A stretch of 58,523 nt of DNA. Origin: a bacterium. GTDB lineage: Bacteria; Patescibacteriota; Minisyncoccia; Phycocordibacterales; DATDWN01. Of the stretch, positions 26,776 to 58,487 are shown piece by piece. Position 1 is the stretch's first letter, and every line of letters starts with the position of its first letter. The DNA lies in NCBI GenBank assembly GCA_037134875.1, contig JBAXLH010000005.1, positions 1 through 58,523 on the forward strand, in the 5' to 3' direction. The position numbers were made by a program, and so were the translations under genes. The notes under the pieces are model-generated. The model did no database searches, was not told the DNA's origin, and worked only from the letters and a program-made list of their open reading frames with translations.

Positions 26776-26915
26776 ATTTTATTTTTGGAGCATCCGCAAG
26801 GAGCAAGCATGGTTTTGTCAACGACCCCGAGCTTTGCGAGGAGCTCATTGACAAATTGCGACTGAGGACAGAATAAACCCGGCGCTGGCCGGGTTTATGT
26901 CTCCAAAAATAAAAT
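26776..26915. repeat. Palindromic repeat element, copy A
   Basis: Perfect 15-bp outer inverted repeat attttatttttggag/ctccaaaaataaaat; core 26806-26871 aligns with 51892-51953. Confidence 0.85.
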
Positions 26916-26941
26916 AATGAGAATTGATTTTACGAAAACGA

Positions 26942-27346
26942 TTATCGTTTACTCCACTGTGGAGCTTTTCTCGCCTTTTTCAGACCGAATTTTCGTCGCT
27001 CTTTTGATCGTGGATCTCGTTTGAGGTAACCCTCCTTTTTGATATCTTTTCTAAGTTCTGGATTGTAATCTACGAGAGCTCTGGCAATACCGTGTCTGAG
27101 TGCCTCGGCTTGTGAGTGAATTCCACCACCAACTATTTTTGCAGTTACTTTGAATTTGTCAGTGATTTTTTTGTCTTTAAATGGTTCTACAACCAAGAGA
27201 TGCATTTCTTTTGTAGGAAAATAATCTGCAATATCTTTTTCGTTTATTGAAACTGTTGTTTTTGATGCCGGAGTAATACGTACTCGCGCAACTGATGTTT
27301 TGCGTCGTCCAACTGCCTCTATGTATTTTTCTTTTGTGTCAGTCAT
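26942..27346 (-). CDS. rpsI: 30S ribosomal protein S9
   Basis: GRRKTSVARV, GGGIHSQAEA and KKARKAPQWSKR. Confidence 0.98.
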   Translation of the reverse strand: MTDTKEKYIEAVGRRKTSVARVRITPASKTTVSINEKDIADYFPTKEMHLLVVEPFKDKKITDKFKVTAKIVGGGIHSQAEALRHGIARALVDYNPELRKDIKKEGYLKRDPRSKERRKFGLKKARKAPQWSKR

Positions 27347-27359
27347 ATGTCTATAATTA

Positions 27360-27707
27360 TTACTCAGTAATCTTTATATTATTCATCATTTTTGCTCGCA
27401 ATTTATTCTTTGGAAGCATTCCAGAAATTGCTATTCGGAAAATTTCACTGTAGCCTTTTTTTGCTACCACCTGCTTCATTGTTGGTTGCTTGAGTCCTCC
27501 TGGGTAACCAGAATATCGACTGTATGTTTCCTGATCCATTTTTGAATCAGCAATTGATGCTTTTGAAGCATTTTTTATTTCAACAGTGACCTCAGGATAT
27601 GCATTTCTTTTGAAATCAGTCGTGTTTTTGCCCATAAGCAAAACTGCGACTTCTGTAGCAACTCGTCCGACTTTTTTATTTTCTGCATCAATTACGTATG
27701 TTTTCAT
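27360..27707 (-). CDS. rplM: 50S ribosomal protein L13 (short form)
   Basis: IDAENKKVGRVA, YSGYPGG and GMLPKNKL; start at ATG 27707. Confidence 0.95.
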   Translation of the reverse strand: MKTYVIDAENKKVGRVATEVAVLLMGKNTTDFKRNAYPEVTVEIKNASKASIADSKMDQETYSRYSGYPGGLKQPTMKQVVAKKGYSEIFRIAISGMLPKNKLRAKMMNNIKITE

Positions 27708-27724
27708 ATTTTTTACATTATCAT

Positions 27725-27848
27725 AAACTTTCAAATTTGACTAAGGTCGCGTATGAAATTTACAAAAGAATTGGAGCCTGCCTGAGTGTACAGGTGACAA
27801 TTCTTTTGTAAATTTCAGACGATGAGATTAGTCATAATTTGGAAGTTT
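27725..27848. repeat. 124-bp long hairpin filling the rplQ-rplM spacer
   Basis: Perfect 20-bp inner stem 27754-27773/27798-27817 plus an imperfect ~20-bp outer stem. Confidence 0.85.
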
Positions 27849-28195
27849 TATACAAATTCTATTACAGCCATTAACCCTCCATCACTCTTTCGTGCTGGCA
27901 ATTTTGTAATGCGAGTATAGCCACCTTTTCGGTCAGCAAACTTTGGAGCAACTTTTGAAATTACCTGATCTGCACCCTCTACACCAATCTTTGCAATAAG
28001 TGCTCGTCGTGCTGAAAGTGTTGGGTTTTTGCCCTGAGTCACCATTTTTTCTGCATATGAACGAAGTTCTCGTGCTTTTGCTTCTGTTGTCTTTATCTTG
28101 CCGTGCATCATAAGAGACAACGCCAAAGACTTGAGCAATGCATTGCGTACTTTTCTAACTCGTCCAAATTTTCTGATTGACTTATGGTGATTCAT
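27848..28195 (-). CDS. rplQ: 50S ribosomal protein L17
   Basis: KFGRVRKVRNALLK, IKTTEAKA and GGYTRI. Confidence 0.98.
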   Translation of the reverse strand: MNHHKSIRKFGRVRKVRNALLKSLALSLMMHGKIKTTEAKARELRSYAEKMVTQGKNPTLSARRALIAKIGVEGADQVISKVAPKFADRKGGYTRITKLPARKSDGGLMAVIEFV

Positions 28196-28208
28196 ACGTG
28201 TTGTGTTA

Positions 28209-29162
28209 TTATTTCAGTGATATTCCGAATGACTGCAAAACTTCCTTGATCTCTGTGAGACCTTTTGCTCCGAGTCCTTCGATCTCTAATATATCTTTTT
28301 CTTTCTTTCGTGCAAGTCCACCGATTGTTCTAATGTTTGCGTTTGTCAGTGCGTTTTGTGTTCGTGCAGAGAGGTTGAGTGTTTCGATACGAGTCTTGAG
28401 ATAGTCCTCATCGATAGCAACATCTTTTTTTGATTCTTTTTTCTCTTCTGTTTCTGAGAAAATTTCCTCTTCTTTAAATCCAACAATAGATTTGAGCTGA
28501 TTTATCATTGTCTCGATTGATTTTTCGAGAGCTTCTTTTGGAGTGATTGTTCCATCTGTTTCAATGAAAATCTTGAGTCGATTGAAATCTGTTCTATCAC
28601 CAACTCGCATATTTTCTACTTCGTAGCTCACTCGTCGTACCGGAGTAAAGATAGCATCGAGAGTAATATGTCCGATATCAACTCGGTTTTTCTGTACAAC
28701 CTCCTTTGGCATAAAGCCAAGTCCTTTCTCAACAACAATTTCCATATCAAGTTCTGATGACTTGTCTGTGAGTGTTGCAATAACAAGCTCTGGATTAAGA
28801 ATCTCAACTCCACCAGGAAGTTTGATGTCTCCAGCAGTTACTTCTTTGACCCCTTTTACTTTGAGCGAAAGAGTCTGTGCTTCGTCAGAAACCATTCGGA
28901 TTCTAACTTTCTTGAGATTAAGCAAGATATTGACAGCATCCTCCTTAATACCAGGAATAACAGAGAATTCGTGACTCACGCCTTCTATTTTGATAGATGT
29001 TACTGCACATCCAACAAGAGAAGATAGGATGATTCTTCGCAGTGAATTACCGAGTGTATGTCCGTATCCGGGATACAAACCATCGATTTCATATGAACCG
29101 GAGAACTCAACCTCCGATACAATTCTTGGTTTTGATGGCAATACAATTGTATAGTCAGACAT
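28209..29162 (-). CDS. rpoA: RNA polymerase subunit alpha
   Basis: GYGHTLGNSLRRIILSS and FTPVRRVSYEVENMRVG; alpha-CTD present. Confidence 0.98.
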   Translation of the reverse strand: MSDYTIVLPSKPRIVSEVEFSGSYEIDGLYPGYGHTLGNSLRRIILSSLVGCAVTSIKIEGVSHEFSVIPGIKEDAVNILLNLKKVRIRMVSDEAQTLSLKVKGVKEVTAGDIKLPGGVEILNPELVIATLTDKSSELDMEIVVEKGLGFMPKEVVQKNRVDIGHITLDAIFTPVRRVSYEVENMRVGDRTDFNRLKIFIETDGTITPKEALEKSIETMINQLKSIVGFKEEEIFSETEEKKESKKDVAIDEDYLKTRIETLNLSARTQNALTNANIRTIGGLARKKEKDILEIEGLGAKGLTEIKEVLQSFGISLK

Positions 29163-29244
29163 AAAAATTTGTTAAAAATAATTAAATAATGCTTCTAAAA
29201 ATAAGTTAATATATTATACACCAATTCTCAATATATATCAAGTA

Positions 29245-29856
29245 TTATCGACTGTAGAACTCGACAACAGCATTAAGGTCGAATAATGAGTCTGTCTGAA
29301 CGAATTGTGGCACACCAACGATTTCTGCCTCTTTCTTTGCTCCATCGAGCTTTATCCATGCTGGAATTGTTGCATTTGAAATTTTTTCATCGAGAGTTGC
29401 AAAGAGTGGTTTTGATTTTGATGCCTCTCGGATTGAGATCTTGTCTCCAATGTACATTTTCATTGAAGGAATATTAACTCGCTTGCCATTTACCATAATA
29501 TGACCATGTGAGACCATTTGTTTGCTTGCAAGTCGTGTTGAAGCAAAACCCATTCGGTATACAACATTGTCGAGTCGTGACTCGAGACCTTCGAAAATAA
29601 GCTGGACTTTGTTTGGATTTTTCTTTGAGAGAGCATCCTTTATATAGTTTGAAAATTGTCTTTCAGACAAACAATATACAAAACGAGCCTTTTGCTTTTC
29701 ATTCATTTGGAATGCAAATTCAGATTTTGGTTTTGAAAAACCTTTCTTTACTTTGCTCTTTCGCTCCATTCTAAAGGCATACTTTTTTGTTTGTGTCTTT
29801 TCAAACACTGGTGCCCCGAGTCGTCGCGCTATTTTGTATTTTGGTCCGATAATCAT
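29245..29856 (-). CDS. rpsD: 30S ribosomal protein S4
   Basis: LESRLDNVVYRMGFA and VSHGHIMVNG. Confidence 0.98.
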   Translation of the reverse strand: MIIGPKYKIARRLGAPVFEKTQTKKYAFRMERKSKVKKGFSKPKSEFAFQMNEKQKARFVYCLSERQFSNYIKDALSKKNPNKVQLIFEGLESRLDNVVYRMGFASTRLASKQMVSHGHIMVNGKRVNIPSMKMYIGDKISIREASKSKPLFATLDEKISNATIPAWIKLDGAKKEAEIVGVPQFVQTDSLFDLNAVVEFYSR

Positions 29857-29876
29857 ATATGTAAAAATTTATTAAA

Positions 29877-30308
29877 TTATACTCGTCGTGGTTTCTTTGG
29901 CTTTGGTCCGTTGTGTGGGACAGGTGTGACGTCTTTGATCGAAGTAAGATTTACACCTTTTGATACAAATCCTCTAATACTTGACTCACGACCAGAACCA
30001 ACACCTTTTACAATGACAGCAACCTCTTTCATTCCCATTGCGCCTGCCTTGCCACCAATAATTTCGCCCACCTTTGCAGCTGCAAATGGAGTTCCCTTCT
30101 TTGCACCCTTGAATCCGATTGATCCACTTGATGAAGATGCGAGTACATTGCCTTTGCTGTCTGTCAAAACAACCTTTGTGTTGTTGTATGTTGACTGAAC
30201 GTATAATCTACCTGTATCAACTTTCTTTTTTGACACAGTTGAAACCTGAGACGCTTTGGCCTCAGATTCGCTAGCTCCTTCTGTTTTTACAATTCGTTTC
30301 TTTCCCAT
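29877..30308 (-). CDS. rpsK: 30S ribosomal protein S11
   Basis: STYNNT, GFKGAKKGTPFAA and DVTPVPHNG. Confidence 0.98.
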   Translation of the reverse strand: MGKKRIVKTEGASESEAKASQVSTVSKKKVDTGRLYVQSTYNNTKVVLTDSKGNVLASSSSGSIGFKGAKKGTPFAAAKVGEIIGGKAGAMGMKEVAVIVKGVGSGRESSIRGFVSKGVNLTSIKDVTPVPHNGPKPKKPRRV

Positions 30309-30312
30309 AATA

Positions 30313-30693
30313 TTATTTCTTATCTGCTATTTTCTTGCCTGTTGACATTGTTTTTCTGACATTACCTCGGCGTGTTCGGGAATTTGTTTTTGTTCTTTGA
30401 CCTCGTGATGGAAGTCCGCGCTGATGTCGCATACCTCTGTATGTTTTTATATCCTTGAGCTGTTTGATATTTCCAGCAACTTCACGTTTCAAATCTCCTT
30501 CTATTTTGTAACTCTCGATAATTTTTCTAATTGTATTTTCCTGATCAATCGAAATATCTTTTGGTTTTGAACCATATGGAACGTTTGCTTTGTCTAAAAT
30601 AGTGTGTGCGAGTGGTCGGCCAATACCATACAAAACGGTAAGTCCGATTTCAATTCTTTTTTCCTCTGGTATTGTGATTCCTAGTATTCTCAT
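30313..30693 (-). CDS. rpsM: 30S ribosomal protein S13
   Basis: MRILG, YGIG and YRGMRHQRGLPSRGQRTKTN. Confidence 0.98.
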   Translation of the reverse strand: MRILGITIPEEKRIEIGLTVLYGIGRPLAHTILDKANVPYGSKPKDISIDQENTIRKIIESYKIEGDLKREVAGNIKQLKDIKTYRGMRHQRGLPSRGQRTKTNSRTRRGNVRKTMSTGKKIADKK

Positions 30694-30717
30694 TACTTTG
30701 TATAAATATATTAAAAA

Positions 30718-30834
30718 TTAACCCTGTCTCTGCTTGTGTCGAGCATTTGCTTTGCAGGTAACATAAACATAGCCCTTTCTTCGGACTACTTGACATTGTG
30801 AACAGATTTTTTTAACAGAAGATTTTACTTTCAT
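30718..30834 (-). CDS. rpmJ: 50S ribosomal protein L36 (not in the ORF track)
   Basis: Hand translation [38 protein letters not shown]; ATGA overlap with the infA stop. Confidence 0.96.
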
Positions 30835-31052
30835 ACTCTCTTTACGATTCTGCCCTTACCGCCGTAAGGATCAATTTCGACAATAACCTTGTCGCCTACT
30901 AAAACTCTAATCCTGTGCAATCTCATTTTGCCAGAGAGAAATGTCAGAATCTCTTCTGCAGTGTCATCTCTTTTCACTTTAAAAAAAGTATTTGGCAAAG
31001 CCTCAATGACTACGCCAGATACACTCATATCCTTTTTATTTTGATCTTGCAT
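30831..31052 (-). CDS. infA: Translation initiation factor IF-1
   Basis: [20 protein letters not shown] and GDKVIVE. Confidence 0.97.
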
Positions 31053-31146
31053 TACGATTTAATCAACGGGTTATATACTAGCAAAATATAGGCCACTTAG
31101 TCAACCCCCTCGCTCTAGATCGTGGCCTTTTTGCAAAGTACTTGTT

Positions 31147-36897: not shown

Positions 36898-37347
36898 TTA
36901 TGATCTGTTAATATAAAATTTTCCTTGAAGATAATTTTCTATAACTTCAAAACTTGGAAAATATCTTGGAGATGGCAGATTATCCAAATCAAACCATTCC
37001 CATTGTATAATCTCGTCAGGTTCAGTCACTTTTGCTTCTCCTTTCCATTCTGTAGCAACAAGACCCACAGTCATAAAATGTGCATGTTCATTTTTGCAAT
37101 TATGTACCGATATTACTTTTGGATTTTTTATAGTTATACTCGTTTCTTCTTTGACTTCTCTTATAGCACCCTCTTCAAATGACTCACCCCACTCAAGTTT
37201 TCCTCCAGGCAAACACCACTCCCCACTACTACGAAATGCAGAATCAGCTTTATCTGGATCAGGATGTCTCATTCCCATGAGAATTTTTCCATTATTTTCA
37301 AGTATAACCCCAAATCCTGCCCCTACTTTTTTCTTTTCAGTATTCAT
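36898..37347 (-). CDS. Nudix hydrolase (NUDT15/MutT-like)
   Basis: GGKLEWGESFEEGAIREVKEETSI and EPDEIIQWEWF. Confidence 0.9.
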   Translation of the reverse strand: MNTEKKKVGAGFGVILENNGKILMGMRHPDPDKADSAFRSSGEWCLPGGKLEWGESFEEGAIREVKEETSITIKNPKVISVHNCKNEHAHFMTVGLVATEWKGEAKVTEPDEIIQWEWFDLDNLPSPRYFPSFEVIENYLQGKFYINRS

Positions 37348-39901: not shown

Positions 39902-41107
39902 TTAGGCTACTTTTTCAATAATTCCCCCACCGAGACAAACCTCTCCGGTATACAAAACAGCAGATTGACCGACAGCTACACCATTTTGAGGCACTTCAAA
40001 ATCAATACAATATTCATTATCTTGTTTTGTAACAGTACACCGTTGTTTTTCTTGTCTGTATCTAATTCGCACAGAACAGACAAAAGGAAAAGCTGGTTCT
40101 TGTCCGGAAATGAAATGCAAATTTTTGACAGTGATTTTTTTGGTTGAAAAAACAGTTTCTTTTTCTGTCTCTTTGTCTGCAACAGTAATCGTATTTTTTT
40201 CCAAATCTTTTGACACCACAAAAAGTTTTGGACTGTTTGCGGTTTTTTTGATTATTTCAAATCCATGACGCTCACCGATGGTAGAAAATATTGCACCGTT
40301 GTGTTTGCCGATGACTTCACCTTTTGTATTTAGAACATCGCCAGGTTTTTCTGAAATATAATGAGCCAAAAATTCCTTCATATCGAGTTTACCCAGAAAA
40401 CAAACTCCTTGACTATCTTTTTTGGTAGCTGTCGGCAAGCCAAACTTCTCAGCGAGCGTTCTGACTTCCGGCTTAGTCATTCCACCAATAGGAAAAAGAA
40501 TATGTGAGAGCTGGTCTTGACTTAGTGTGTACAGAAAATATGACTGATCTTTGTTTTTGTCGACAGATTCGTGGAGCTCAAAAAACTCAAAATCTTTTGA
40601 ATGGGAATGTTCTGACGGAACATTGCGCAGGCCGACGGGCTGAGCACGAAGAAATTTGCCAGCAGGCAAATATTCTGTTTCCGGCAGAATATTCCCTGAA
40701 AAATATTTTGAGTTTTTATGCACCACGGCATAGTGTCCCGTCGCAACATAATCAGCTCCCATTTCAAGAGCTTTTTTGAGAAAAACACCGAACTTTACAT
40801 ACTTGTTACAAAACACGTCCGGGTTTGGTGTGCGACCGACGCGATATTCGTTTATCATATAATCTGCAACCTCTTTTTTATATTCTTCCTGACAGTCCAG
40901 TGTTATAAACGGTACACCGAGCGTCGCACAAACTCGCATTGCATCCCGTCGTTCTTCTCGCCAATTACACTCAAGAAAATCAGGATTCCAAACACGCAAA
41001 AAAACTCCAGTCACATCGTAGCCCTGTCTTTTGAGCAAAGCCAAAGCAACAGAGCTATCCACTCCACCAGAAACTCCCACAAAAACTTTTTTTCCTTTTG
41101 AGACCAT
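39902..41107 (-). CDS. mnmA: tRNA 2-thiouridylase MnmA with a ~40-aa insertion
   Basis: SGGVDS, TPNPDVFCN, ATGHY, KDQSYFL and SQGVCF. Confidence 0.96.
   Translation of the reverse strand: MVSKGKKVFVGVSGGVDSSVALALLKRQGYDVTGVFLRVWNPDFLECNWREERRDAMRVCATLGVPFITLDCQEEYKKEVADYMINEYRVGRTPNPDVFCNKYVKFGVFLKKALEMGADYVATGHYAVVHKNSKYFSGNILPETEYLPAGKFLRAQPVGLRNVPSEHSHSKDFEFFELHESVDKNKDQSYFLYTLSQDQLSHILFPIGGMTKPEVRTLAEKFGLPTATKKDSQGVCFLGKLDMKEFLAHYISEKPGDVLNTKGEVIGKHNGAIFSTIGERHGFEIIKKTANSPKLFVVSKDLEKNTITVADKETEKETVFSTKKITVKNLHFISGQEPAFPFVCSVRIRYRQEKQRCTVTKQDNEYCIDFEVPQNGVAVGQSAVLYTGEVCLGGGIIEKVA
40581..40717. repeat. Palindromic element inserted in-frame in mnmA
   Basis: Perfect 13-bp outer inverted repeat aaaaactcaaaat/attttgagttttt enclosing at least three hairpins. 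Confidence 0.8.
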
Positions 41108-41133
41108 TGAGGAATTTATACCACAAATTTAGA

Positions 41134-42126
41134 TTATTTCAAATACTTTGCTTTGTTTCTTTTATGTTCCTCAAATGTTTTGGCGTAATGTATCGTTCCG
41201 TTTTTTTCTGTCAGATAGTACAAATAATCCGACGTGACTGGAGTTGCAGCCGCAATAATAGCATTGACTCCCGGATTGCCGATCGGTCCCGGCGGTAAAC
41301 CTTTGTGTGTGTATGTGTTATACGGAGAATCAATTTTCAAATCTGCCAGTGTCAGATTGTATGTATTTTTTCCATTTATATACAGAAATGATGAGTCGAC
41401 TTGGAGAGGCATTCCGATAGATATTCTCTTCCATAGTATTCCGGAGACAGTCTGTCGATCTGCAGGCAACACTTCATCTTCCAAAATAGATGCCATTGTA
41501 ATAATGTCTGACAAACTTTTTCCAGATTTTTTTACTTCCGCCAACTGACTCACTTTTTGTTCAAAATTTTGATTCATCATTTGTATAATCTCTTTTGCTC
41601 CATATGATGGAGGAAGAAAATATGTATCAGGAAACAAATATCCCTCACGTGGTTTTGCAAGACTCAAAAATTCCGCTTTATTGAAATTTGTTAAGTTTTT
41701 CTCGAGATAATCCCCGATTTGCGACACAGTCCAACCCTCAGGAATCGTCACTTTGACTGCATTGATTCTAAACTGTCCAGCAACCAGTCGCTCAGCAAGG
41801 ACAAGAACATTTTCTTTTTGATCTAAGAGATAATCACCGGCAATTACCTTTTTTTCTCCTCCAAACAGAATAACGAGCGAACGGAAAAGAAATGTTGATT
41901 TAACAATATGACTATCTTTTAAATTTATACTTATTGACTGCAATGATTCACCAGAATGTATTGTGAGTGTACTACCTATCGGAAAATCAGAAGGAGCAGA
42001 AAAAATAAAAACCACGACAATTGACAGGACAAACGCAAAAGAAAAAGCAATCATTGCTTTTTTCTTTTCAGATGTAAACTCAGAAAAATAATGTCTCAGT
42101 TTTTCGATCCAGATTTTGTAATCCAT
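41134..42126 (-). CDS. mltG: Endolytic transglycosylase MltG
   Basis: TM anchor, IPEG, EGYLFPDTY, ASILEDE, LQVD, SPYNTY and GLPPGPIGNPG. Confidence 0.93.
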   Translation of the reverse strand: MDYKIWIEKLRHYFSEFTSEKKKAMIAFSFAFVLSIVVVFIFSAPSDFPIGSTLTIHSGESLQSISINLKDSHIVKSTFLFRSLVILFGGEKKVIAGDYLLDQKENVLVLAERLVAGQFRINAVKVTIPEGWTVSQIGDYLEKNLTNFNKAEFLSLAKPREGYLFPDTYFLPPSYGAKEIIQMMNQNFEQKVSQLAEVKKSGKSLSDIITMASILEDEVLPADRQTVSGILWKRISIGMPLQVDSSFLYINGKNTYNLTLADLKIDSPYNTYTHKGLPPGPIGNPGVNAIIAAATPVTSDYLYYLTEKNGTIHYAKTFEEHKRNKAKYLK

Positions 42127-44563: not shown

Positions 44564-47464
44564 CTACACCACGACAAAATTAACAAGTCTATTCGCTACA
44601 TAAATGGTTTTTTTGATTTCTTTACCCAAAAGCCACTTGTCTACCTCTGGAAGTTTTTTGGCAATATCTACTATTTCATCCTGTGCAGTTCCTCCAGGAA
44701 CAGAGCATTCTGCCCGTACTTTTCCATTGATTTGAATCATAATTTTGATCTCTGTTTCAACAATTTTTTTCGGATCCGCTTTTGGCCATTTTTCGATGGA
44801 AATCAAGGTTTTGTTTCCTATAGCGTGCCAAATTTCTTCTGTAATATGTGGCGCAAACGGAGAGAGAATTTTGAGAAACATTTCAAAATCCTCTTTGTTT
44901 ATTTTCTCCAATTTTTCAGCCTCATTTAGGAAAATCATCATTCCAGAAATGGCTGTGTTGAATCCCATTTTTTCAATATCATCAGAAACTTTTTTGAGTG
45001 TCTTATGGAGAAGTGTTTCAAATTTTTGATCAGGTGTTGTATTTTTTACAACACGAAACTGAAGTCGCCAGACGCGGTCAAGAAATCTTCGGGCACCAAT
45101 AATATTTTGCTCATCCCAACCAATCGCCTGATCAAATGGGCCCATAAACATTTCGTACATTCGGAGCGTATCGGCACCATATGCTTTTACAATATCATCG
45201 GGATTTACCACATTTCCGCGAGACTTGCTCATTTTTTCCCCACCCTTTGCAAGAATCATTCCATGAGATGTACGTTTTTTGTACGGTTCTGAAAATGGCA
45301 CAAGTCCAATATCAAACAAAAACTTGTTCCAAAATCGTGAGTAGAGCAAATGGAGTGTTGTATGTTCCATTCCACCGTTGTACCAGTCCACTTGCATCCA
45401 CTTTTTCATTTTTTTCATATCCGCAAACTTCTTTGAATTTTTTGGATCTGTGTATCGCAAGAAATACCACGAACTTCCCGCCCAGTTTGGCATTGTGTCT
45501 GTCTCGCGTTTTGCCTTCCCACCACATGTTGGACATTTTATATTGACCCACTTTGAAATACTGGCGAGTGGTGACTCCCCTGTATCTGTCGGCTCATATT
45601 TTGTAACTTTTGGAAGAGTTAGTGGTAAGTCCTTTTCTTTGAGGGGCACAATTCCACAGTCCGGACAATGTACAACCGGAATCGGTTCACCCCAATATCT
45701 CTGACGAGAAAACACCCAATCTCGCAATTTGAATTTTGTTACTGATTTTCCGTGAACAAATTTTGTGATTTCTTTTTTAGCCTTTTCACTATCTGTTCCA
45801 TTAAATCTTCCAGAGTTAATCATCAATCCGTTTCCTAAATAAGATGAACTAACAAAAATATTTTTATCACTCGTTTTGTCAAACCCTAATTCAATAATCC
45901 TGGCTATTGAATTCGTAATAAACCACACCCAATGATCATTATCATGACCACCATTATGTGCAAGTATGTTATCCAACAATTCTTTGCCCGAAACCCAAGT
46001 TAAATCAAAATCTTCATGTTCTTCATGATGTACCTTTTTTTCCTCTGTGCTATTCAAAATAACGAGAAAACAGGTTGCCCAAGCAGAGCGATTAACTTTT
46101 CGTAAACTATTATAATAGTGAGTATATGCTGTGCCAACAAATTCAACTTTTTTAAAATCATACAGACCACTTTCCTCCTCAACTTCACGAAGAATGCCAG
46201 TTTTAATATCTTCGCCACTATCTACTCCACCAGAAAACAGTCTAAAAGCACCGTTTTTTTGGAGGCCGACTGCGTATTTTTGTGTTTTTGGATCAAAAAC
46301 AATTCCACATCCACCATTTCTCTCTTCTTCATTTTCTCTCTTGAGACCAAATTCAGGAGCTATGACTTGTTTTATTGGTAGTTCATACTTCTTTGCAAAC
46401 GCAAAATCACGTTCGTCGTGAGCGGGCACAGCCATTACGCTACCTGTACCATATGTTGCAAGTACATAGTCAGCAATAAAGACCGGAATTTCTTCGTTGG
46501 TTGCAGGATTTATTGCCTGTACACCACGGAGTAGGACTCCTGTCTTTTCTTTTTCATCGGCAGTACGCTCTATCTCAGCTTTCTTTTTTGAATCAGAAAT
46601 ATATGTTTCTACCTCACTCCAGTTTGTAATTTGATTTTTGAGTTTCTGTACAAACTCGTGTTCCGGCGCAAGTACAACATATGTCGCTCCGAAAATTGTG
46701 TCTGGTCGAGTTGTAAAAACTTTTATTTTTTCGGAAATTTTTTTGAGTGCAAATTCAATTTCTGCGCCCTCGCTCCGTCCAATCCAATTTCTCTGCTGAA
46801 GTTTTATTTTTTCCAAATAGTCGACAGTATCCAAATCTCTATCTAATTTGTCTGCATACTTTGTAATCCGAAGCATCCACTGTTCCTTCTCACGTTTTTC
46901 TACCGGAGTACCACATCGCTCACAACAACCGTTTACAACCTCCTCGTTTGCAAGACCGATTTTATCCTTTGGACACCAATTTATATTTATTTTTGCTTTG
47001 TATGCCAGATCATGTTTCAAAAATTGCAAGAAAATCCACTGCGTCCATCTGTAATATTTTGGATCAGTTGTGTTTATTTCTCGTGACCAATCAAAAGACA
47101 TCCCGAGACCTTTAAATTGTTTTCTGAAATTGTCTGTATTTTTCTGTGTGACTTTTGCCGGCTGGATTCCGGTTTTGATAGCATAATTCTCTGTGGGAAG
47201 TCCGAATGCATCCCAACCTATTGGAAATAGAACATTTGCCCCGTTCATTCGTTTCTTGCGCGAAATAATATCCATCGCAGTATATCCGCGAACATGGCCG
47301 GTATGAAGTCCATCTCCTGATGGATATGGAAATTCCATAAGTCCATAAAATTTTTGTTTTTTTGAAGTATCAGAAGCACGAAAAACTTTTTTCTTTTCCC
47401 ATTCTTTCTGCCATTTTGGCTCTATATTACTTGGCTCGTATTCCTTGGATATAGTTTTTTTCAT
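44564..47464 (-). CDS. leuS: Leucine--tRNA ligase with an inserted Nudix domain
   Basis: FPYPSGDGLHTGH, FTTRPDT, RDWVFSRQRYWG and KMSKS; start at ATG 47464. Confidence 0.97.
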   Translation of the reverse strand: MKKTISKEYEPSNIEPKWQKEWEKKKVFRASDTSKKQKFYGLMEFPYPSGDGLHTGHVRGYTAMDIISRKKRMNGANVLFPIGWDAFGLPTENYAIKTGIQPAKVTQKNTDNFRKQFKGLGMSFDWSREINTTDPKYYRWTQWIFLQFLKHDLAYKAKININWCPKDKIGLANEEVVNGCCERCGTPVEKREKEQWMLRITKYADKLDRDLDTVDYLEKIKLQQRNWIGRSEGAEIEFALKKISEKIKVFTTRPDTIFGATYVVLAPEHEFVQKLKNQITNWSEVETYISDSKKKAEIERTADEKEKTGVLLRGVQAINPATNEEIPVFIADYVLATYGTGSVMAVPAHDERDFAFAKKYELPIKQVIAPEFGLKRENEEERNGGCGIVFDPKTQKYAVGLQKNGAFRLFSGGVDSGEDIKTGILREVEEESGLYDFKKVEFVGTAYTHYYNSLRKVNRSAWATCFLVILNSTEEKKVHHEEHEDFDLTWVSGKELLDNILAHNGGHDNDHWVWFITNSIARIIELGFDKTSDKNIFVSSSYLGNGLMINSGRFNGTDSEKAKKEITKFVHGKSVTKFKLRDWVFSRQRYWGEPIPVVHCPDCGIVPLKEKDLPLTLPKVTKYEPTDTGESPLASISKWVNIKCPTCGGKAKRETDTMPNWAGSSWYFLRYTDPKNSKKFADMKKMKKWMQVDWYNGGMEHTTLHLLYSRFWNKFLFDIGLVPFSEPYKKRTSHGMILAKGGEKMSKSRGNVVNPDDIVKAYGADTLRMYEMFMGPFDQAIGWDEQNIIGARRFLDRVWRLQFRVVKNTTPDQKFETLLHKTLKKVSDDIEKMGFNTAISGMMIFLNEAEKLEKINKEDFEMFLKILSPFAPHITEEIWHAIGNKTLISIEKWPKADPKKIVETEIKIMIQINGKVRAECSVPGGTAQDEIVDIAKKLPEVDKWLLGKEIKKTIYVANRLVNFVVV

Positions 47465-47553
47465 AATACTCAGTATGCCAAAAAACCCGCATAAAATCAA
47501 AGTGTCAAGGACTTGCCCTGACACTTTTGATTATTTTAATTTTGTTTTACTTT

Positions 47554-49985: not shown

Positions 49986-50477
49986 TCACATCTTGTTTTT
50001 CATTTCGATAGCTCGCTTCACAATATGATCCCCGATTTCTCCCCATTTCACATACTGGTCATACTCTTTGGGATCAATCAGTTTAATTTCTGAAATGTCA
50101 CCGTCCGGATCTGACACAAAATCTCCGTAGGGTTCAACAATACAAAATGACCGAGTTTGTCGTATCGTGCGATCTTTCTCGTATACATCTATATAACCAA
50201 TCAATTCCTGATGGAGAACTTTCATATTTGATTCTTCTTTTACTTCGCGCACTACAGCCTCCTCATACGTTTCTCCTTTTTCTATACCACCGCCCGGAAA
50301 TGTCCAATATCCTTTATCTTGCGCATACACCACAACCAGTTTATCTCCACAAAAACAAAAACCATGTACGGCTTGTAGAATTTTTCCATCTAGCCCTTCT
50401 AGCGGATCAAATCCTTCTCTGTACACATATTCATACATCTGCCCGTCACGACCCTTGAATTGTGATTTGATTTCCAT
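49986..50477 (-). CDS. Nudix hydrolase, paralog of 20005-20505
   Basis: GGGIEKGETYEEAVVREVKEESNM; start at ATG 50477. Confidence 0.88.
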   Translation of the reverse strand: MEIKSQFKGRDGQMYEYVYREGFDPLEGLDGKILQAVHGFCFCGDKLVVVYAQDKGYWTFPGGGIEKGETYEEAVVREVKEESNMKVLHQELIGYIDVYEKDRTIRQTRSFCIVEPYGDFVSDPDGDISEIKLIDPKEYDQYVKWGEIGDHIVKRAIEMKNKM

Positions 50478-51845: not shown

Positions 51846-52015
51846 ATAAAAGGACAACCTAAAATAATTTTTGGAGACTCCGCAGGCCGTGAGCATGGTC
51901 TTGTCAACGACCGAGCGAAGCGAGGCTCATTGACAAGTTACGGTCGAGGACAGCCGAGAATGCTCGCAGGAGCATTCGAGGTTGCTCCAGAAATTATTTT
52001 AGATTGTCCTTTTAT
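51846..52015. repeat. Palindromic repeat element, copy B
   Basis: 31-bp outer inverted repeat with 2 mismatches (51846-51876 / 51985-52015); core aligns with 26806-26871. Confidence 0.85.
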
Positions 52016-52027
52016 CTATTTAATTTC

Positions 52028-53097: not shown

Positions 53098-53100
53098 AAT

Positions 53101-53496
53101 CTAGTTAAATGTAATTTCAAATGGGTACATTCCCATTCCACAGGTTCCTCTGAATACTCCGACAGGTTGCGAACCGATATCAATATCTGTTGAGCTTGAT
53201 GATTGAAGAATTTTTGATAGATTCATACTTGGAATTCGAATAGAAGCGGAACAATCAAATGTTCCGTTTGTTGTTACCCGCAAAATAGTTGGAACACCTG
53301 CCTTGGCTACACTTTTTCTCGGAGAATATCCTCCGCGGGCAGTCAGCTCCACAATCTGTGTACCATTCTGGATTGTCACATTGTTTTGTTGCTCGAGATT
53401 TGTATTATTTCCAGTTCCACCAGAGTTTCGCGACAAGAAAACAGCACCAAAAATGAGTAAGAGAGAAATAATAATGGAAATAATGGTGGCTTTCAT
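53101..53496 (-). CDS. Membrane-anchored cupredoxin-domain protein
   Basis: GGYSP, FDCSA and GTCGMGMY. Confidence 0.85.
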   Translation of the reverse strand: MKATIISIIISLLLIFGAVFLSRNSGGTGNNTNLEQQNNVTIQNGTQIVELTARGGYSPRKSVAKAGVPTILRVTTNGTFDCSASIRIPSMNLSKILQSSSSTDIDIGSQPVGVFRGTCGMGMYPFEITFN

Positions 53497-53505
53497 TGAA
53501 GTTTA

Positions 53506-54534
53506 TTAGAAATTAAAAATAGGTGGCAATACATTGATCACAACCAAACTGTTTATTATTGTGAACACCGCAAAAAATATAACAATGAGTCCGGCACTTT
53601 TGAAAAAGATGCCTGCTTTTGAATTGTTTTTGAAACTAAAAGAGCTGAAACTGACGAGAGCAAGAATAGGCAGTGTACCGAGAGCAAACGTAAGCATAGT
53701 TAGTCCCCCATTCCAGAAATTTCCGACCGAGAGTGTATAAATCTGCATTGATTGAGTAAATCCACACGGTAAGAAAAATGTAACCGCACCAACAAGAAAC
53801 GGAGTGAGACTATGATTGAGTTTGGAAATTCCGAGAGCATGCCGAGAAATAAATTTTGGCATACTTGGCTGAATTTTTTTGGTTATATGAAAAACATCAA
53901 GGAGGTTGAGTCCCATAATGAGCATCACAATGCCTACGATAAATCCCAGAATAAATGTCATCGTTCCATTTAGCTGAAATGCAGAGCCAATAACACCGAT
54001 CACTCCACCGAAAATAAAAAAAGAAATGAGTCGTCCGATATGGAACAAGGACTGCGGTTTAAACTTTTCGCCTTCCTTTGCAAATGTTGCAGACATTGAA
54101 AGCAAGAGTCCACCGACGACAGCCATACAGCTCGAAAGAGACGCGACAACACCAATAAGAAAAATAGAACCAAATGACATATGTTTGCCACTCACAATAT
54201 TCACGAGTCCCAGTTTTTGGAGCAATATAAAAATAACAATAAACGCTAGTGCCACAGGAACGGCAATTTTAAAATCTGAAAAATCTTTTTGCGCCACATC
54301 GAATGGATGAGCAGAAAAAGAATATTTTTGTTCATACAACAAAATAGAAAAATCTTCGGCAATCTTTTCGGCAGGAATTCCTTCAAAATCTCCTGTCACA
54401 GTTACAATCTTTGTATCAAAATTAATCTGAACACCCTCGACATACGAAAGATCAGATAATTCCTTTTCTATAAGTAGAGCACAGGATTTGCAATTCATTC
54501 CCTGCACATAAAATTTATATGTAACACTTTTCAT
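53506..54534 (-). CDS. HMA domain + DsbD_2/TauE-like membrane protein
   Basis: GMNCKSC metal-binding motif; SLSSCMAVVGG; FFLPCGFTQ; LGTLP. Confidence 0.85.
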   Translation of the reverse strand: MKSVTYKFYVQGMNCKSCALLIEKELSDLSYVEGVQINFDTKIVTVTGDFEGIPAEKIAEDFSILLYEQKYSFSAHPFDVAQKDFSDFKIAVPVALAFIVIFILLQKLGLVNIVSGKHMSFGSIFLIGVVASLSSCMAVVGGLLLSMSATFAKEGEKFKPQSLFHIGRLISFFIFGGVIGVIGSAFQLNGTMTFILGFIVGIVMLIMGLNLLDVFHITKKIQPSMPKFISRHALGISKLNHSLTPFLVGAVTFFLPCGFTQSMQIYTLSVGNFWNGGLTMLTFALGTLPILALVSFSSFSFKNNSKAGIFFKSAGLIVIFFAVFTIINSLVVINVLPPIFNF

Positions 54535-54795
54535 TTATTTTCTTTTTAATTTATATACCTTGAGAATTTCATCTTTTGTTGTTTTTTCTTTGCCTTTTTT
54601 TATCTGATCAATAACACACGTATCTAAATGTGACTCCATCAAGGAATCCTCTATACTCGAAAGTGCATTTCTTATTGCTGATGTTTGGGTAATCACATCA
54701 ATACAATATTTTTTCTTTTCTATCATTTCTCTTACTCCTCTCACCTGACCTTCTATAATATGTAATCTTTTTAATAATTTTTCCTGTGTTGTCAT
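54535..54795 (-). CDS. csoR: Copper-sensing repressor, CsoR family
   Basis: RLHIIEGQVRG, YCIDV and SHLDTC (Cys-His-Cys ligands intact). Confidence 0.92.
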   Translation of the reverse strand: MTTQEKLLKRLHIIEGQVRGVREMIEKKKYCIDVITQTSAIRNALSSIEDSLMESHLDTCVIDQIKKGKEKTTKDEILKVYKLKRK

Positions 54796-54834
54796 AATAT
54801 GTAATTATAATATAAAACCCTATATAAAAATAAT

Positions 54835-54868
54835 GGCGCTAGGGACGATCTCTTTTGTCCCTAGCGCC
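54835..54868 (-). terminator. 12-bp perfect hairpin in the csoR leader
   Basis: ggcgctagggac / gtccctagcgcc followed on the minus strand by attattttt. Confidence 0.7.
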
Positions 54869-54872
54869 CGGC

Positions 54873-54932
54873 CTAACAGCCGTTCTGACAGTGAGCAACC
54901 GCTCGCAACATCCAGCGACGTCGAATGTACAT
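54873..54932 (-). CDS. 19-aa CxxxC leader peptide MYIRRRWMLRAVAHCQNGC (not in the ORF track)
   Basis: AAAGGAG SD 9 nt upstream of ATG; directly downstream of the CsoR-operator promoter. Confidence 0.6.
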   Translation of the reverse strand: MYIRRRWMLRAVAHCQNGC

Positions 54933-54956
54933 ATGCTTGCTCTCCTTTCTGTAATT

Positions 54957-54985
54957 ACTATATACCCCTAGGGGGTATATGTCAA
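54957..54985 (-). promoter_or_regulatory. Sigma70 promoter with a CsoR-type operator in the spacer
   Basis: TTGACA-17 nt-TATAGT; palindrome ATATACCCC-TAG-GGGGTATAT at 54960-54980. Confidence 0.9.
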
Positions 54986-55377
54986 AACAACTTATCCACA
55001 ATTTTTTCTAGCTTGAGAGAAAGATACCCAAGAAGTCCGAGCTGGATTGTGGGAGTAAGTCCAGTGCCGAGAAATGGAAGAATCGGCATATACGAGTTAT
55101 ACACCCACATCCCCGTAGCAAGTGCAAACCATTCAATGAAAATTGATATGAGTATACCAACAAAAATAATTATCCAGCTGTGTTTTTGAAAAAAAGATTG
55201 TTTTAAAAACAACACTGACAGTATTGTAATAATGAGAGCATCAATCAGACTTGCTTCAAATAGGACCAGAAAGGTGATATCACCTCCCATATAGTGCGCA
55301 TATAAAAACGAGTGAAAATATTCCCAGACAAGATTGAGAATAAAAGAAATTACAAAAATAGATAAAAATTTTTTCAT
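54982..55377 (-). CDS. Small multi-pass membrane protein
   Basis: Four hydrophobic helices, NLVWEY and IEWFAL...WVY; start at ATG 55377. Confidence 0.7.
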   Translation of the reverse strand: MKKFLSIFVISFILNLVWEYFHSFLYAHYMGGDITFLVLFEASLIDALIITILSVLFLKQSFFQKHSWIIIFVGILISIFIEWFALATGMWVYNSYMPILPFLGTGLTPTIQLGLLGYLSLKLEKIVDKLF

Positions 55378-55445
55378 ACAATAATAGTAGCATATTAAAA
55401 TCGCCTTTCGTTTCCTACTCAGCGATTTATTAGAAATATGCCACC

Positions 55446-55718
55446 TCAATTAATATGAATAGGAACTCTGGCCGTGACAAACTCAGCCACGATCACAGTT
55501 TCTTTTCCGTCACCACTTTTTCCACCTACCAACAAGCCTTCCACGTGTCCGTAGACGACGACTTCCGACTGTCCGTCCGAGAGACGCACAGTACCGAAAT
55601 GAACGACGTCCGGCACATGTCCAGTAAGCCAAAACTTGATGCGGGTGATTGCTCCATCCCACAAAATTTCCTCTCCGACGGGAGTGAAAGTTTGGTTATC
55701 CGCAATGATTAGGTGCAT
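55446..55718 (-). CDS. Small hypothetical protein, visibly GC-rich
   Basis: GAGAGG SD before ATG 55718. Confidence 0.5.
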   Translation of the reverse strand: MHLIIADNQTFTPVGEEILWDGAITRIKFWLTGHVPDVVHFGTVRLSDGQSEVVVYGHVEGLLVGGKSGDGKETVIVAEFVTARVPIHIN

Positions 55719-55780
55719 GGTAACCTCTCTCGACTCATTATACATTAAACACTACAATCAACTAACTTTCTGTGGATATC

Positions 55781-57742
55781 TTATTTCACAGAATCATATG
55801 TGTGTTTATTTATTTTTAAATTATATATTTTGAACACGTTGAATATTGGGAGAAAATCTGTGAGAAAGTTAAAGACTGATGCGCCCACTGGACCAACAAA
55901 CCCTCCAAAGGCCAGAAAGAGGCCTACTCCATTTGTAATTGCCCAAATAACAAAATTTTGTCGAACAATAGAGAGAACTTCTTTACTCAAATAAATTGAC
56001 TCCGGTACTCTGCGCAAATCATCGTGAATGAGTGTAATATCAGACGCTTCAATAGACGCATCAGCGCCTGTTCCTCCCATCGAGAAACTCACATCAGCGA
56101 GAGCAAGTGATGCCGCATCGTTGACACCATCTCCCATCATCGCAATAGCGCCGTGTTTTCTTTTTAATTTTTTGATGTGCTCAAGTTTCTCGGCCGGTTT
56201 CAAGTTTGCATAAAATTCATTGATACCAGTTTCTCTCGCAACACGAGACGCAACCTGCTCATTGTCTCCGGTCAGCATTATCCAATCTTTAACCCCAAGT
56301 GTTTTTGTCTCAGCAATGGCATCGTGTGCATATTTTTTTACTTCGTCCGCAAGTACAAAAAATCCTGCGAGTTTTCCGTCAATTGCAACAGCCGTAATAC
56401 TCGCACCATTTTGTTTTTCCTCCGAAATTTGTTTTGTAACTTCGTGAGAAATCATAACTCCCTTTTGTTCCAAAAACGAAACTCGGCCGTGTAGATATTC
56501 GTGTCCTCCGTGTTTTGCATAGACACCGTCACCTGGATATTCCATTACTTCATCAGGTGAATGGACTTTGACTCCATTTTTTTCGGCATATTGCACAACC
56601 GCTTTTGACATTGGATGTTTTGAATCTATCGAACATATCGCACCGGCGATTACAAATTCGTTTTCAGGTCTTCCGTCCACTGAAACCGCTTTTGAAACTG
56701 CAAACACACCTTTTGTCAGTGTACCCGTTTTGTCCGTAACAAAAATTCGGATATCTTTGAGTCGTTCCATCACCGCCGCACCTTTGACAATAATGCCGTG
56801 TTTGGCAGCTTTTGATATGGCTACCGTAAACCCGAGAGGAATTGCCACCGCAAGATCATCTGCGCAGGTCACAAGCAAAATGCTGAGCACAAGATTTAGA
56901 TTCCTCGTGACAATATAAATAACAAAAACTCCCACAAGTGAGATGAGAATGTACCATGCACTAAATTTGTTTGCCAACGTTTCTGTTTTTGTTTTTGCGC
57001 GACTTGCCTCGTCCACGAGTGCAATCATTTTTGAAAGTGTTGTGTCTTCGCCAACTTTTTCTGCACGAACAAAGAGTGAGCCAGACAAACAGAGTGTAGA
57101 ACTAAGCACCTGACTACCCGGAGTCTTGCTCAGTGGTTTACTTTCGCCAGTGAGAGATGATTCGTCCACCATTGCCTGACCCTTTACAACACTGCCATCA
57201 ATAGGTATCCTGTCGCCCGATTCCACCACAACAACATCACCGACAACAACTTCCTCTAATGTTTTTTCTTTTGTATATTCACCATCCTGAACTCTCACAG
57301 AAACTGGCCGTAGTTTGAGTAGGCTGGAAATAATATGCTCTGTGCGTCTCTCTGTAAATGCTTCAAAAAGTCTCGCCGAGGAAAGCATAAGATTTATAAA
57401 CACAGCTGATACCCATTCGCCCTGAATAATGGTGAACGCAAGTGCAATACTCGCGAGAAGATCTATTGTAATACTCTTTTTTACGAGAGCCCTCACAGCG
57501 CTCCAGACAACAGGAGCAATACCGAGAATAGACACGACGACAATAGATATATTTGAAATCTGCCCCGCAAGTGATGAAAATGAAAACAAATGTAAAACAC
57601 CGAGCCCGTGATAGACGAGTGTAATAAAGAGCAACGCAATGAGACCTTCATTAAAATAAATCTGACGTGTAATCGCTTTGTCATTTTCCTCGGCTTTGAT
57701 CACGACACTTTTTGCCTTTCCTACTGTTTTAATTTTTTCCAT
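55781..57742 (-). CDS. Heavy-metal P1B-type ATPase with a non-canonical CAD transmembrane motif
   Basis: TGES, DKTGT, HP, TGDN and GDGVND motifs; CADDL where CPC is expected; no N-terminal HMA domain. Confidence 0.93.
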   Translation of the reverse strand: MEKIKTVGKAKSVVIKAEENDKAITRQIYFNEGLIALLFITLVYHGLGVLHLFSFSSLAGQISNISIVVVSILGIAPVVWSAVRALVKKSITIDLLASIALAFTIIQGEWVSAVFINLMLSSARLFEAFTERRTEHIISSLLKLRPVSVRVQDGEYTKEKTLEEVVVGDVVVVESGDRIPIDGSVVKGQAMVDESSLTGESKPLSKTPGSQVLSSTLCLSGSLFVRAEKVGEDTTLSKMIALVDEASRAKTKTETLANKFSAWYILISLVGVFVIYIVTRNLNLVLSILLVTCADDLAVAIPLGFTVAISKAAKHGIIVKGAAVMERLKDIRIFVTDKTGTLTKGVFAVSKAVSVDGRPENEFVIAGAICSIDSKHPMSKAVVQYAEKNGVKVHSPDEVMEYPGDGVYAKHGGHEYLHGRVSFLEQKGVMISHEVTKQISEEKQNGASITAVAIDGKLAGFFVLADEVKKYAHDAIAETKTLGVKDWIMLTGDNEQVASRVARETGINEFYANLKPAEKLEHIKKLKRKHGAIAMMGDGVNDAASLALADVSFSMGGTGADASIEASDITLIHDDLRRVPESIYLSKEVLSIVRQNFVIWAITNGVGLFLAFGGFVGPVGASVFNFLTDFLPIFNVFKIYNLKINKHTYDSVK

Positions 57743-57796
57743 ACATATATTTTACACTATTTGTTTTTTAAAATCTTTTAAACAATTTTATACGAA

Positions 57797-57820
57797 AAAC
57801 CGGACACCGAAGTGCCCGAT
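57797..57820 (-). terminator. UUCG-loop intrinsic terminator
   Basis: cgggcac-ttcg-gtgtccg followed by gttttt. Confidence 0.75.
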
Positions 57821-57827
57821 TAGACAT

Positions 57828-57998
57828 TTACCGCGGAAGAAATCCTGCAGTCATAGACGTCTTGGCTGAGCCAAGTATCGTCTGCAATGCGTCAAAGAAC
57901 ACGAGAAGCGTTCTCTGTAGTCCCGCAAATATTTCCGGGACCAGGAACTTAAGCAGGACGATTAGCAAACCGAAACCTAAAACTCGAAAAATATTCAT
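57828..57998 (-). CDS. 56-aa membrane protein (not in the ORF track)
   Basis: Hand translation MNIFRVLGFGLLIVLLKFLVPEIFAGLQRTLLVFFDALQTILGSAKTSMTAGFLPR; followed by a terminator. Confidence 0.7.
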   Translation of the reverse strand: MNIFRVLGFGLLIVLLKFLVPEIFAGLQRTLLVFFDALQTILGSAKTSMTAGFLPR

Positions 57999-58259
57999 AT
58001 CTTTTTTATTTTAAGAGAAGCGGAGACTGTGTGTGGACGAGACACACAGCGCCGGCTAATCGCCAGACTGCCCCTCTCTTCCCTTTTTACCTGCTGTGAC
58101 AAAAAGAGAAGAAGTGAGGTTCCAGCGCATTTTCAATGATCTTTCCTTACTTATATTATATCACTTTTTTATTAAAAAAACAGCCCTGATTTATATACCA
58201 AACTTGCATAGAATAAAAAATAATGTAAAATAGAATTTGTCATTTTGAGTAGTAAATAA

Positions 58260-58487
58260 GGGCCCTTAGCTTCCGGTAGAGGCCCGAATGAGTTTTGAAA
58301 ATTTAATATGGGCCCTTAGCTTAGTTGGTGGAGTGAGATTGGGGTGGGACCCAATCGCAAGACCGGAGCGCGACGGCGCGAGGTGGGGTCGAGAGATTTT
58401 TCAGCAGAAAAATACTCGTGACACTCATTTGCCAAATGAGGCTAGTGGGTTCTAAAATAAGTTCAGTGAAGTTTGAAAATTTAATAT
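58260..58487 (+). pseudogene. Two decayed tandem copies of the tRNA-Ala 5' region, the second carrying an ~88-bp structured insertion
   Basis: gggcccttagctt starts at 58260 and 58310; tttgaaaatttaatatgggcccttagcttagttggt is repeated before 58310 and 58488. Confidence 0.75.

Follow-up and report, generated by a model that had tools for sequence, protein, structure and literature searches.

Within the 58,523 nucleotides of contig JBAXLH010000005.1 (the whole stretch analyzed here, in the following called the window), five structured elements of three types are dispersed among genes for ribosomal proteins and other housekeeping functions, the majority of which are encoded on the minus strand. 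Two full-type copies occupy spacers, one at 26758-26933 between rpsI and grpE and the other at 51846-52015 between a GH18 gene and a 74-aa open reading frame (ORF). A mini-type copy (40581-40717) lies inside mnmA (39902-41107, minus strand), a GC-rich insert (58330-58423) is found in a decayed copy of a tRNA-Ala gene, and an element of a third, “long-stalk” type (27725-27850) is situated between rplQ and rplM. All five score best on the plus strand. The window has a G+C content of 38.5%, and the same DNA is also present in a 61-kb ENA contig and in NCBI assembly GCA_964547445.1; the nearest relatives of the MnmA encoded here are labelled Patescibacteria, Paceibacterota or Parcubacteria in their sources. 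Since the GC skew of the plus strand is negative from about 16 kb onward, the minus strand, which bears most genes, is probably the leading strand. As the preliminary description had stated, no transposase was recognized in the window; neither transposase nor integrase or reverse transcriptase domains were found in its ORFs, about nine of which are, however, without a Pfam match.

A folding scan with a 140-nt sliding window, from which the effect of G+C content was regressed out, places positions 27721, 40581, 51861 and 9001 at the top ranks and 26781 and 58381 within the top eight, and all six sites for which strong structures had been proposed are thus folding outliers. At the four main sites, z values against dinucleotide shuffles are -8.4 (26758-26933), -11.4 (51846-52015), -7.7 (40581-40717), and -6.1 (58330-58423). 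The longest inverted repeats of the window, I1 (31 nt), I2 (33 nt), I3 (31 nt) and I10 (18 nt), are the closing AT-rich stems of these structures, in agreement with the long closing stems described previously. ARAGORN predicts no tRNA in the window and none at any of the structured sites. Rfam 15 families are likewise unmatched at these sites when gathering scores are applied, and lowering the threshold to E ≤ 5 adds only one chance-level match to a microRNA on 27751-27820.

The two spacer copies are clearly homologous, having about 90 nt in common (Smith-Waterman z = 28.6), and a 34-nt pattern common to both is seen twice in the window versus 0.01 times expected. Copy 1 (core 26781-26914, plus strand, antisense to both rpsI and grpE) possesses a 3′ arm of subtype A and an AT-rich closing stalk of 33 nt (I2) with the internal loop UGAAGG/AAUGAG, and scores 135.6 bits with R1, a covariance model of the full type. 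Copy 2 (core 51867-51998, plus strand) possesses a 3′ arm of subtype B and a closing stalk of 31 nt (I1), and scores 115.8 bits. When one genome per species was scanned with the pattern TCCGCA-N8-GCATGGT-N8-CGACC, which combines unpaired parts of both copies, 56 stretches were obtained, about 20 of them (in 19 loci) genuine and the remainder chance matches in GC-rich genomes. The genuine matches come only from Patescibacteria-type metagenome-assembled genomes, i.e., Paceibacterota, Minisyncoccia, Parcubacteria, Saccharibacteria, a bin labelled “uncultured bacterium,” and one contig binned as Nitrospira, with two to four full-type copies per genome. Further copies were found by R1 in these same loci; its 25 matches above 80 bits correspond to 22 distinct copies (alignment A4) from about 12 Patescibacteria genomes, and a single 5.6-kb Saccharibacteria contig carries four of the full type. 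The recurrence in other Patescibacteria that had been anticipated is therefore found, for the full type by pattern scan and R1 and for the other two types by the models R2 and R3 introduced below.

The full-type core of about 130 nt consists of a three-way junction on the closing stalk. Its first arm comprises UCC/GGA, an 8-bp P2 helix, the 7-nt bulge GCAUGGU, an 8-bp P3 helix and a variable P4, and the second hairpin, P5, carries the loop CGCYGG. Invariant junction bases are UCCGCAG, the bulge AGCAUGGU, GUCAACGACC, GGCUCAUUGAC and GAGGAC, and the hairpin loop CGCYGG is invariant as well. Over the 22 copies, 95.5% of the cells are paired and 26 of 41 pairs show changes on both sides. The covariation score is 0.53, somewhat inflated by an alignment that was fitted to the model, compared with 0.19 for shuffled alignments (reached in 0 of 500 shuffles) and at most 0.13 for slid ones, and an independent run of MAFFT and RNAalifold recovers compensatory changes in 24 of 41 pairs. 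The covariation noted in the preliminary description is borne out by these data, and our best reading is that the fold of the element is under constraint. Two of the modules named there do not hold, as the “GAATG(C/T)TC stem” is the P5 hairpin at 51846 and part of the stalk at 40581, and the AGCA of the supposed “AGCA”-loop stem is junction sequence rather than a loop in both spacer copies. Beyond the conserved part, the stalk runs on for 10-30 bp in a sequence that is particular to each copy, even within one genome, and just the innermost 8 bp or so (UUUUSRGAG/CUCYSAAAA) are common to the copies. An internal loop recurs in the stalks. Its 5′ side reads UGAAGG, GUUGAG or GUCGCG, and opposite to this its 3′ side reads AAUGAG, GUGAGAAA or CGAUGAG. 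The loop occurs at 26768-26790 with 26901-26923, at 27745-27752 with 27818-27828, and in stalks of loci L031, L020, L047 and L018, and from its sequence it may be a K-turn or loop-E motif.

Full-type copies group by genome only partly. Both 3′-arm subtypes are present together in three distant genomes, variants of the P2 helix recur across classes, and each of the two full-type copies of the window is nearer to copies in other classes than to the other one. The exchange of modules between copies that had been suggested can be seen at L031:4286, where the 5′ arm of L031:5461 is joined to a subtype-B 3′ arm.

The mini-type copy is an in-frame insertion, antisense to the gene, into mnmA, identified from its translation and from homologues with Pfam PF03054, PF20259 and PF20258 as the gene for tRNA 2-thiouridylase. 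It adds about 40 residues to the protein, residues 128-178 standing in for the 11-residue linker (143-153) that connects the catalytic and central domains of E. coli MnmA. Alignment of close homologues, which range from 352 to 445 aa in length, reveals at this loop either nothing or inserts differing in sequence and length. R1 recognizes the insert at 40612-40691 with 29 bits, the P2-P4 arm being replaced by four bases. BLAST detects mini-type relatives in spacers of an unrelated genome (L050:3841-3922 and L037:6641-6722), from which, together with the mnmA insert (core 40610-40689), the covariance model R2 was built; R2 scores the mnmA insert, a member of its training set, at 102.4 bits and finds additional mini-type copies in L018 and L112. 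Two related genomes carry the MnmA insert in opposite orientations, sense in L064 and antisense in L065, and the reading frame is open both ways. The cores of the two inserts, of about 95-110 nt, are near-exact reverse complements of each other (122 nt aligned, 95.9%; one mismatch by eye), and the break points of the inversion lie in the outer stalk. The interval between yceG and mnmA also differs, holding an additional small ORF of 111-123 aa, together with some 500 nt of non-coding sequence, in these two genomes (L064:8157-8978 and L065:3106-3988) and measuring just 27 nt (41107-41134) in the window.

At the end of the window, 58310-58460 is a decayed duplicate of a tRNA-Ala gene. The 20 nt of its 5′ end and the anticodon arm have survived, the T-arm and acceptor strand of the 3′ side are gone, and about 94 nt (58330-58423, plus strand) stand where the D arm should have its 3′ half. 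Within this insert, which was not part of the R2 training set, 58362-58418 scores 30.5 bits with R2 (E = 1e-5 in 907 kb) and is a mini-type core without the usual stalk. In a cloverleaf test, 58310-58460 is not a complete tRNA gene, as a paired acceptor stem is missing. An intact tRNA-Ala(TGC) gene follows, runs past the window end and is seen whole in L001. The preliminary description held that the elements reshape both proteins and RNAs; this applies to the in-frame insert of MnmA, whereas on the RNA side only the tRNA-Ala pseudo-copy is affected and the functional tRNA-Ala is intact. The 45-nt direct repeat D7 (left copy 58289-58333, right copy 58467-58511, plus strand; 93% identity), made up of the region upstream of tRNA-Ala and the first 24 nt of the tRNA, brackets the insert but takes in decayed tRNA sequence too, its right copy being the start of the intact gene. 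About 110 nt past the window end (L001 9041-9138, minus strand), there is a 3′ fragment of tRNA-Ala with a terminal CCA that is missing from the intact gene; it contains in its T loop an 88-nt GC-rich insert with CGAA on both sides and the hairpin loop CAGCAG. With a score of only 11.4 bits, this insert is at most a possible member of the family.

In pairwise alignments, the sites at 40581 and 58336 show no similarity to the two spacer copies. The proposal that one family occupies four sites is therefore upheld by direct homology for 26776 and 51846 and by covariance models, not pairwise similarity, for 40581 and 58336. R2 scores a full-type copy at 34.4 bits and R1 the mini copy of mnmA at 29 bits, so that each model detects the other's type, and all R2 matches with E ≤ 1 in 907 kb are family copies. 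Judged from sequence, the mini type may be a form of the family that lacks the long P2-P4 arm, and the third type little more than a stalk. The third-type element at 27725-27850 (plus strand; I3), one of two sites that had been considered possible additional members, is an AT-rich hairpin of about 55 bp with the apex GGAGCC..GUGAC. The corresponding model, R3, detects copies in other contexts at L100 (two), L011, L018 and L050. The element represents a third family that, as a putative relative at most, has the GGAGCC top and the internal loop of the stalk in common with the full and mini types and co-occurs with them. Outside the window, six mini- and third-type copies fall in about 108 kb of loci positive for the full type versus three in 678 kb of other loci (conditional binomial, p ~4e-4), and bin-2248 carries at least seven copies of three types across four loci. 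The spacers of bin-2248 also contain many long AT-rich palindromes composed of GGAAATT/AATTTCC repeats (L013:1-119, L037:332-463, L050:2030-2145, L050:2509-2643 and L062:3358-3511).

The distribution of the family is patchy. About 1 Mb of Patescibacteria DNA was searched in total, with models that were built from 3 to 15 sequences (effective sequence numbers 1.3-1.6) and whose E-values are rough owing to a shortened calibration. In 80 contigs of relatives (679 kb), which were fetched by means of RpsI at 60-76% identity, R1 finds no full-type copy at E ≤ 0.1, and its best score among relatives is 15 bits (90 kb, filters off). The spacer between rpsI and grpE, which measures 240 nt with the element in the window, is 20-70 nt long and empty in L080, L085 and L090. 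In L068 and L069, where grpE does not follow rpsI, a plain terminator hairpin is located just 3′ of rpsI. In L067, which is the closest relative, a remodelled copy (13.6 bits) occupies this position in an unchanged orientation. In six of six contigs with an identical RpsI, rpsI and grpE are again 240 nt apart, a comparison of spacing and not of scanned DNA, so that all six probably carry the element. Occupied as well as vacant orthologous sites, as the preliminary description had envisaged, are thus found both in the rpsI-grpE spacer and at the MnmA loop. The 75 ORFs neighbouring the copies are all housekeeping genes, with no recurrent Pfam family and no transposase among them, and no direct repeats flanking the two spacer copies or the mnmA copy could be recognized by eye. 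An all-against-all BLAST of 426 spacers recovered mainly small conserved genes and AT-rich palindromes. At the 3′ end of rpsI in other relatives (L081:10387-10520, L082:10402-10700 and L087:10387-10470), the last 20 nt or so of the gene occur twice, before and after GC-rich hairpin inserts that measure about 90 nt and belong to other families, a sequence arrangement that suggests repeated insertion with target duplication.

We see about an even chance that the elements of the window, with five copies, belong to a dispersed, non-autonomous superfamily of palindromic repeats of Patescibacteria that is mobile or recombining. Patchiness, high local copy number and filled versus empty orthologous sites speak for a non-autonomous element that recombines and reaches new sites by copying, and the copy within a coding region, the copy within a tRNA duplicate, the exchange of arms and the flipped insert lead to the same reading. 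Copies would spread, or be copied to new sites, through a trans-acting factor encoded elsewhere, would trade arms by recombination or gene conversion, and might flip between their own inverted repeats. They would survive where harm is small, namely in spacers near the ends of genes and for the most part antisense to the adjoining ones, in a linker on the surface of MnmA, where the frame stays open either way, and in a tRNA copy that is defunct. The earlier suggestion of a non-autonomous mobile or repair-templated family thus agrees with the filled and empty sites and with the recurrence, but neither a mechanism, be it HUH/Y1, repair-templated or another, nor a target-site duplication or a conserved terminal repeat was found to go with it. 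Several observations speak against mobility. Terminal stems are not conserved in sequence between copies, no consistent target-site duplication is seen, and there is no transposase in the window or among the 75 neighbouring ORFs. Unpaired bases are invariant from Saccharibacteria to Paceibacteria, and the two conserved 3′-arm subtypes and an excess of G-U over A-C pairs on one strand (27 versus 11) are as expected of a functional RNA. The inversion between L064 and L065 could be explained by ordinary recombination between inverted repeats, and no strain-level presence/absence polymorphism was seen, by spacing, at the rpsI-grpE spacer of the six contigs. Finally, the models derive from few sequences and only about 1 Mb was covered, and with models this narrow the absence of the element in relatives is partly a model effect.

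Together with the strand bias, the unconserved terminal stems, the lack of target duplications and the invariant junction bases keep a multi-copy functional RNA family as the main rival, which we regard as possible although distinctly the less probable explanation. According to it, the elements are genes for small structured RNAs, trans-acting multi-copy paralogues with their own promoters antisense to the neighbouring genes, whose long stalk is perhaps cut by a double-strand RNase, and the MnmA and tRNA inserts would be copies captured by accident or decayed. Such a family accounts equally well for the strong covariation and for the invariance of the junction bases. It is also in line with the G-U bias, which applies to the drawn (plus) strand, with the orientation of flanking genes, 28 of which are opposite in strand to the element while 12 share its strand, and with the recurrence of P2 variants and both 3′-arm subtypes across classes. 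In addition, full-type copies in several genomes are flanked by CACCACTAAG and CGTYRT, which would form a conserved RNA leader CACCACUAAG and trailer CGUYRU, and a sigma-70-like match is present at 26715-26743, about 15 nt upstream of the stalk of copy 1. However, copy 2 has no promoter-like site and the copies have no conserved neighbouring gene, zero copies were found in the 679 kb of relatives, and synteny is lost beyond the closest relative. Four copies on one 5.6-kb contig and copies within a coding region and within a tRNA copy are likewise hard to reconcile with a set of RNA genes.

A bolder reading, which we consider rather improbable, would view the elements as working parts and not as junk. 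In this case the three-way junction would serve as the RNA or single-stranded DNA handle of an undescribed, Patescibacteria-wide mobility system that is guided by structure or by RNA. A recombinase, reverse transcriptase or nuclease acting in trans would recognize the junction and copy or invert the element, and the variable helices P2 and P4 might carry the specificity.

To a slighter degree still, the elements might be cis-acting parts of operons, i.e., bidirectional terminators, processing sites or mRNA-stabilizing hairpins comparable to REP/BIME or SPRITE, which on this reading are kept for a function in place and spread mainly by gene conversion. Most copies do lie just past gene ends between genes of the same direction, simple AT-rich terminator hairpins are found at the same place in relatives, and long AT-rich palindromes are common in the spacers of these genomes. 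An invariant three-way junction of 130 nt is needless for a terminator, however, no T-run follows the stalks and a terminator scan is blank at both spacer copies, the strand that the G-U bias points to is antisense to the operons, and the copies in MnmA and in the tRNA duplicate cannot work in this manner. That the sites are unrelated hairpins, alike through the chance short motifs of GC-rich stems in an AT-rich genome, is very improbable, for although pairwise similarity exists only between 26776 and 51846 and several of the modules first listed are not homologous positions, the models detect each other's type at 29-34 bits whereas R1 reaches at best 15 bits in relatives (90 kb, filters off) and has no match at E ≤ 0.1 in 679 kb, R2 retrieves only family copies at E ≤ 1 in 907 kb, and the types co-occur in the same genomes.

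Returning to a mobile or recombining palindromic repeat, Rickettsia palindromic elements (RPEs) resemble the present family in being palindromic repeats of about 100-150 bp in the small AT-rich genome of a host-dependent bacterium that occur in spacers, in-frame in housekeeping protein genes and in RNA genes, that have no associated transposase, and whose inserts are tolerated in surface regions of proteins (PMC10969869). The palindromic insert in the interdomain linker of MnmA, in-frame and open in both orientations, has this RPE-like character. Dozens of in-frame cases are known per Rickettsia genome as opposed to one in this window, and only the present family has a three-way-junction core shared across the classes of a phylum and both orientations of an insert in orthologous genes. 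Membership in RPEs by sequence is not expected because the hosts are unrelated.

[quoted passage not shown] The window matches them with five short, non-coding copies of three types in 58.5 kb, and mobilization in trans might apply here as well. Terminal inverted repeats of a sequence kept from one copy to the next are a mark of MITEs, as are target-site duplications and, in most cases, a parent insertion sequence. Here, by contrast, the terminal stems vary in sequence among copies, a duplication cannot be discerned, and the parent element was looked for in vain in the window and among the 75 neighbouring ORFs; moreover, MITEs are usually AT-rich and the cores described here are GC-rich. Unconserved terminal stems, missing target duplications and invariant junction bases thus make the family a misfit among classical MITEs.

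Repetitive extragenic palindromic (REP) sequences and REPINs with their RAYT (HUH Y1) transposases are also GC-rich spacer hairpins with compensatory changes in their arms, a patchy occurrence and an orientation bias, and they depend on a single-copy enzyme encoded elsewhere (PMC3733652), a factor that the present elements would require too. REPs differ in being simple hairpins of 20-40 nt, frequently arranged as inverted pairs, with a GTAG or CGTC head, compared with a branched core of 130 nt without such a head.

The GC clusters or double-hairpin elements of fungal mitochondria are mobile, GC-rich and palindromic elements of a very AT-rich genome that occupy spacers and rRNA genes and also lie in-frame within a protein gene, var1. 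They belong to another domain of life, are far shorter (30-50 nt) and lack a branched core of the conserved kind described here. Intragenic invertons resemble the MnmA insert in being bounded by inverted repeats and in having two orientations with an open frame that encode two different peptides, whereas the orientations seen here are fixed in two separate genomes, with no switching observed inside a single population and no invertase encoded nearby. A described equivalent of the family was found neither in Rfam 15 nor in the MITE and repeat literature searched, and in this respect the view that it is undescribed has stood.

Several other origins were considered and dropped. Known RNA families (signal recognition particle RNA, 6S, 5S, Y RNA, RNase P, known ribozymes, retron non-coding RNA and omega or bridge RNAs) were weighed and set aside on copy number, for want of a linked gene, or because they gave no Rfam match. 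A CACCA-like motif upstream of several copies is not the 3′ end of a tRNA, ARAGORN finding no adjoining tRNA at 16 loci. With regard to phages and plasmids, a viral scan gave one chance match that R1 rejected, and BLAST against both yielded nothing.

Genomes of Patescibacteria are tiny and are regarded as streamlined and poor in mobile elements. A repeat family that extends from Saccharibacteria to Paceibacteria would offer a new handle on how these genomes change, as its members enter housekeeping proteins in-frame, flip inside a coding region and swap arms between copies. It also calls for caution in annotation, since such elements lengthen proteins, give rise to tRNA-like pseudogenes and inflate spacers. 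Should the core turn out to function as an RNA, or to be the site that an undiscovered enzyme recognizes, it would constitute a new RNA class over a large part of the bacterial tree.

The second site that had been listed as a possible member, 9006-9135, consists of two simple hairpins between convergent genes followed by ATATTGTGCGAC and lies outside the family, being absent from the matches of R1 (E ≤ 1), R2 (E ≤ 1) and R3 (E ≤ 0.1). A counterpart exists at L080:8180-8400 (minus strand), where a two-hairpin unit with compensatory changes in both stems is again followed by ATATTGTGCGAC. This unit may be a separate cis element or a small RNA.

Some further features of the window concern its genes. 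The leucyl-tRNA synthetase (44564-47524, minus strand; 986 aa) has a NUDIX domain listed amid its synthetase domains and thus represents the insertion of a whole domain into a housekeeping enzyme. Three NUDIX hydrolase genes, paralogues dispersed over the window, have a 92-nt stretch in common (20239-20330, 37129-37220 and 50217-50308; 61-76% identity). Around 54900-55800, loci L003, L004 and L005 encode a P-type ATPase identical to that of L001 and L002 and diverge just downstream of it, where a 155-aa ORF is swapped for ORFs of 90 or 102 aa, a strain-level variation in gene content between contigs of different samples. Three ORFs of the minus strand, 10376-12097 (573 aa), 12534-16277 (1247 aa) and 16887-18674 (595 aa), are without any Pfam match. 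A 94-nt repeat is common to the first two, which are probably paralogous surface proteins.

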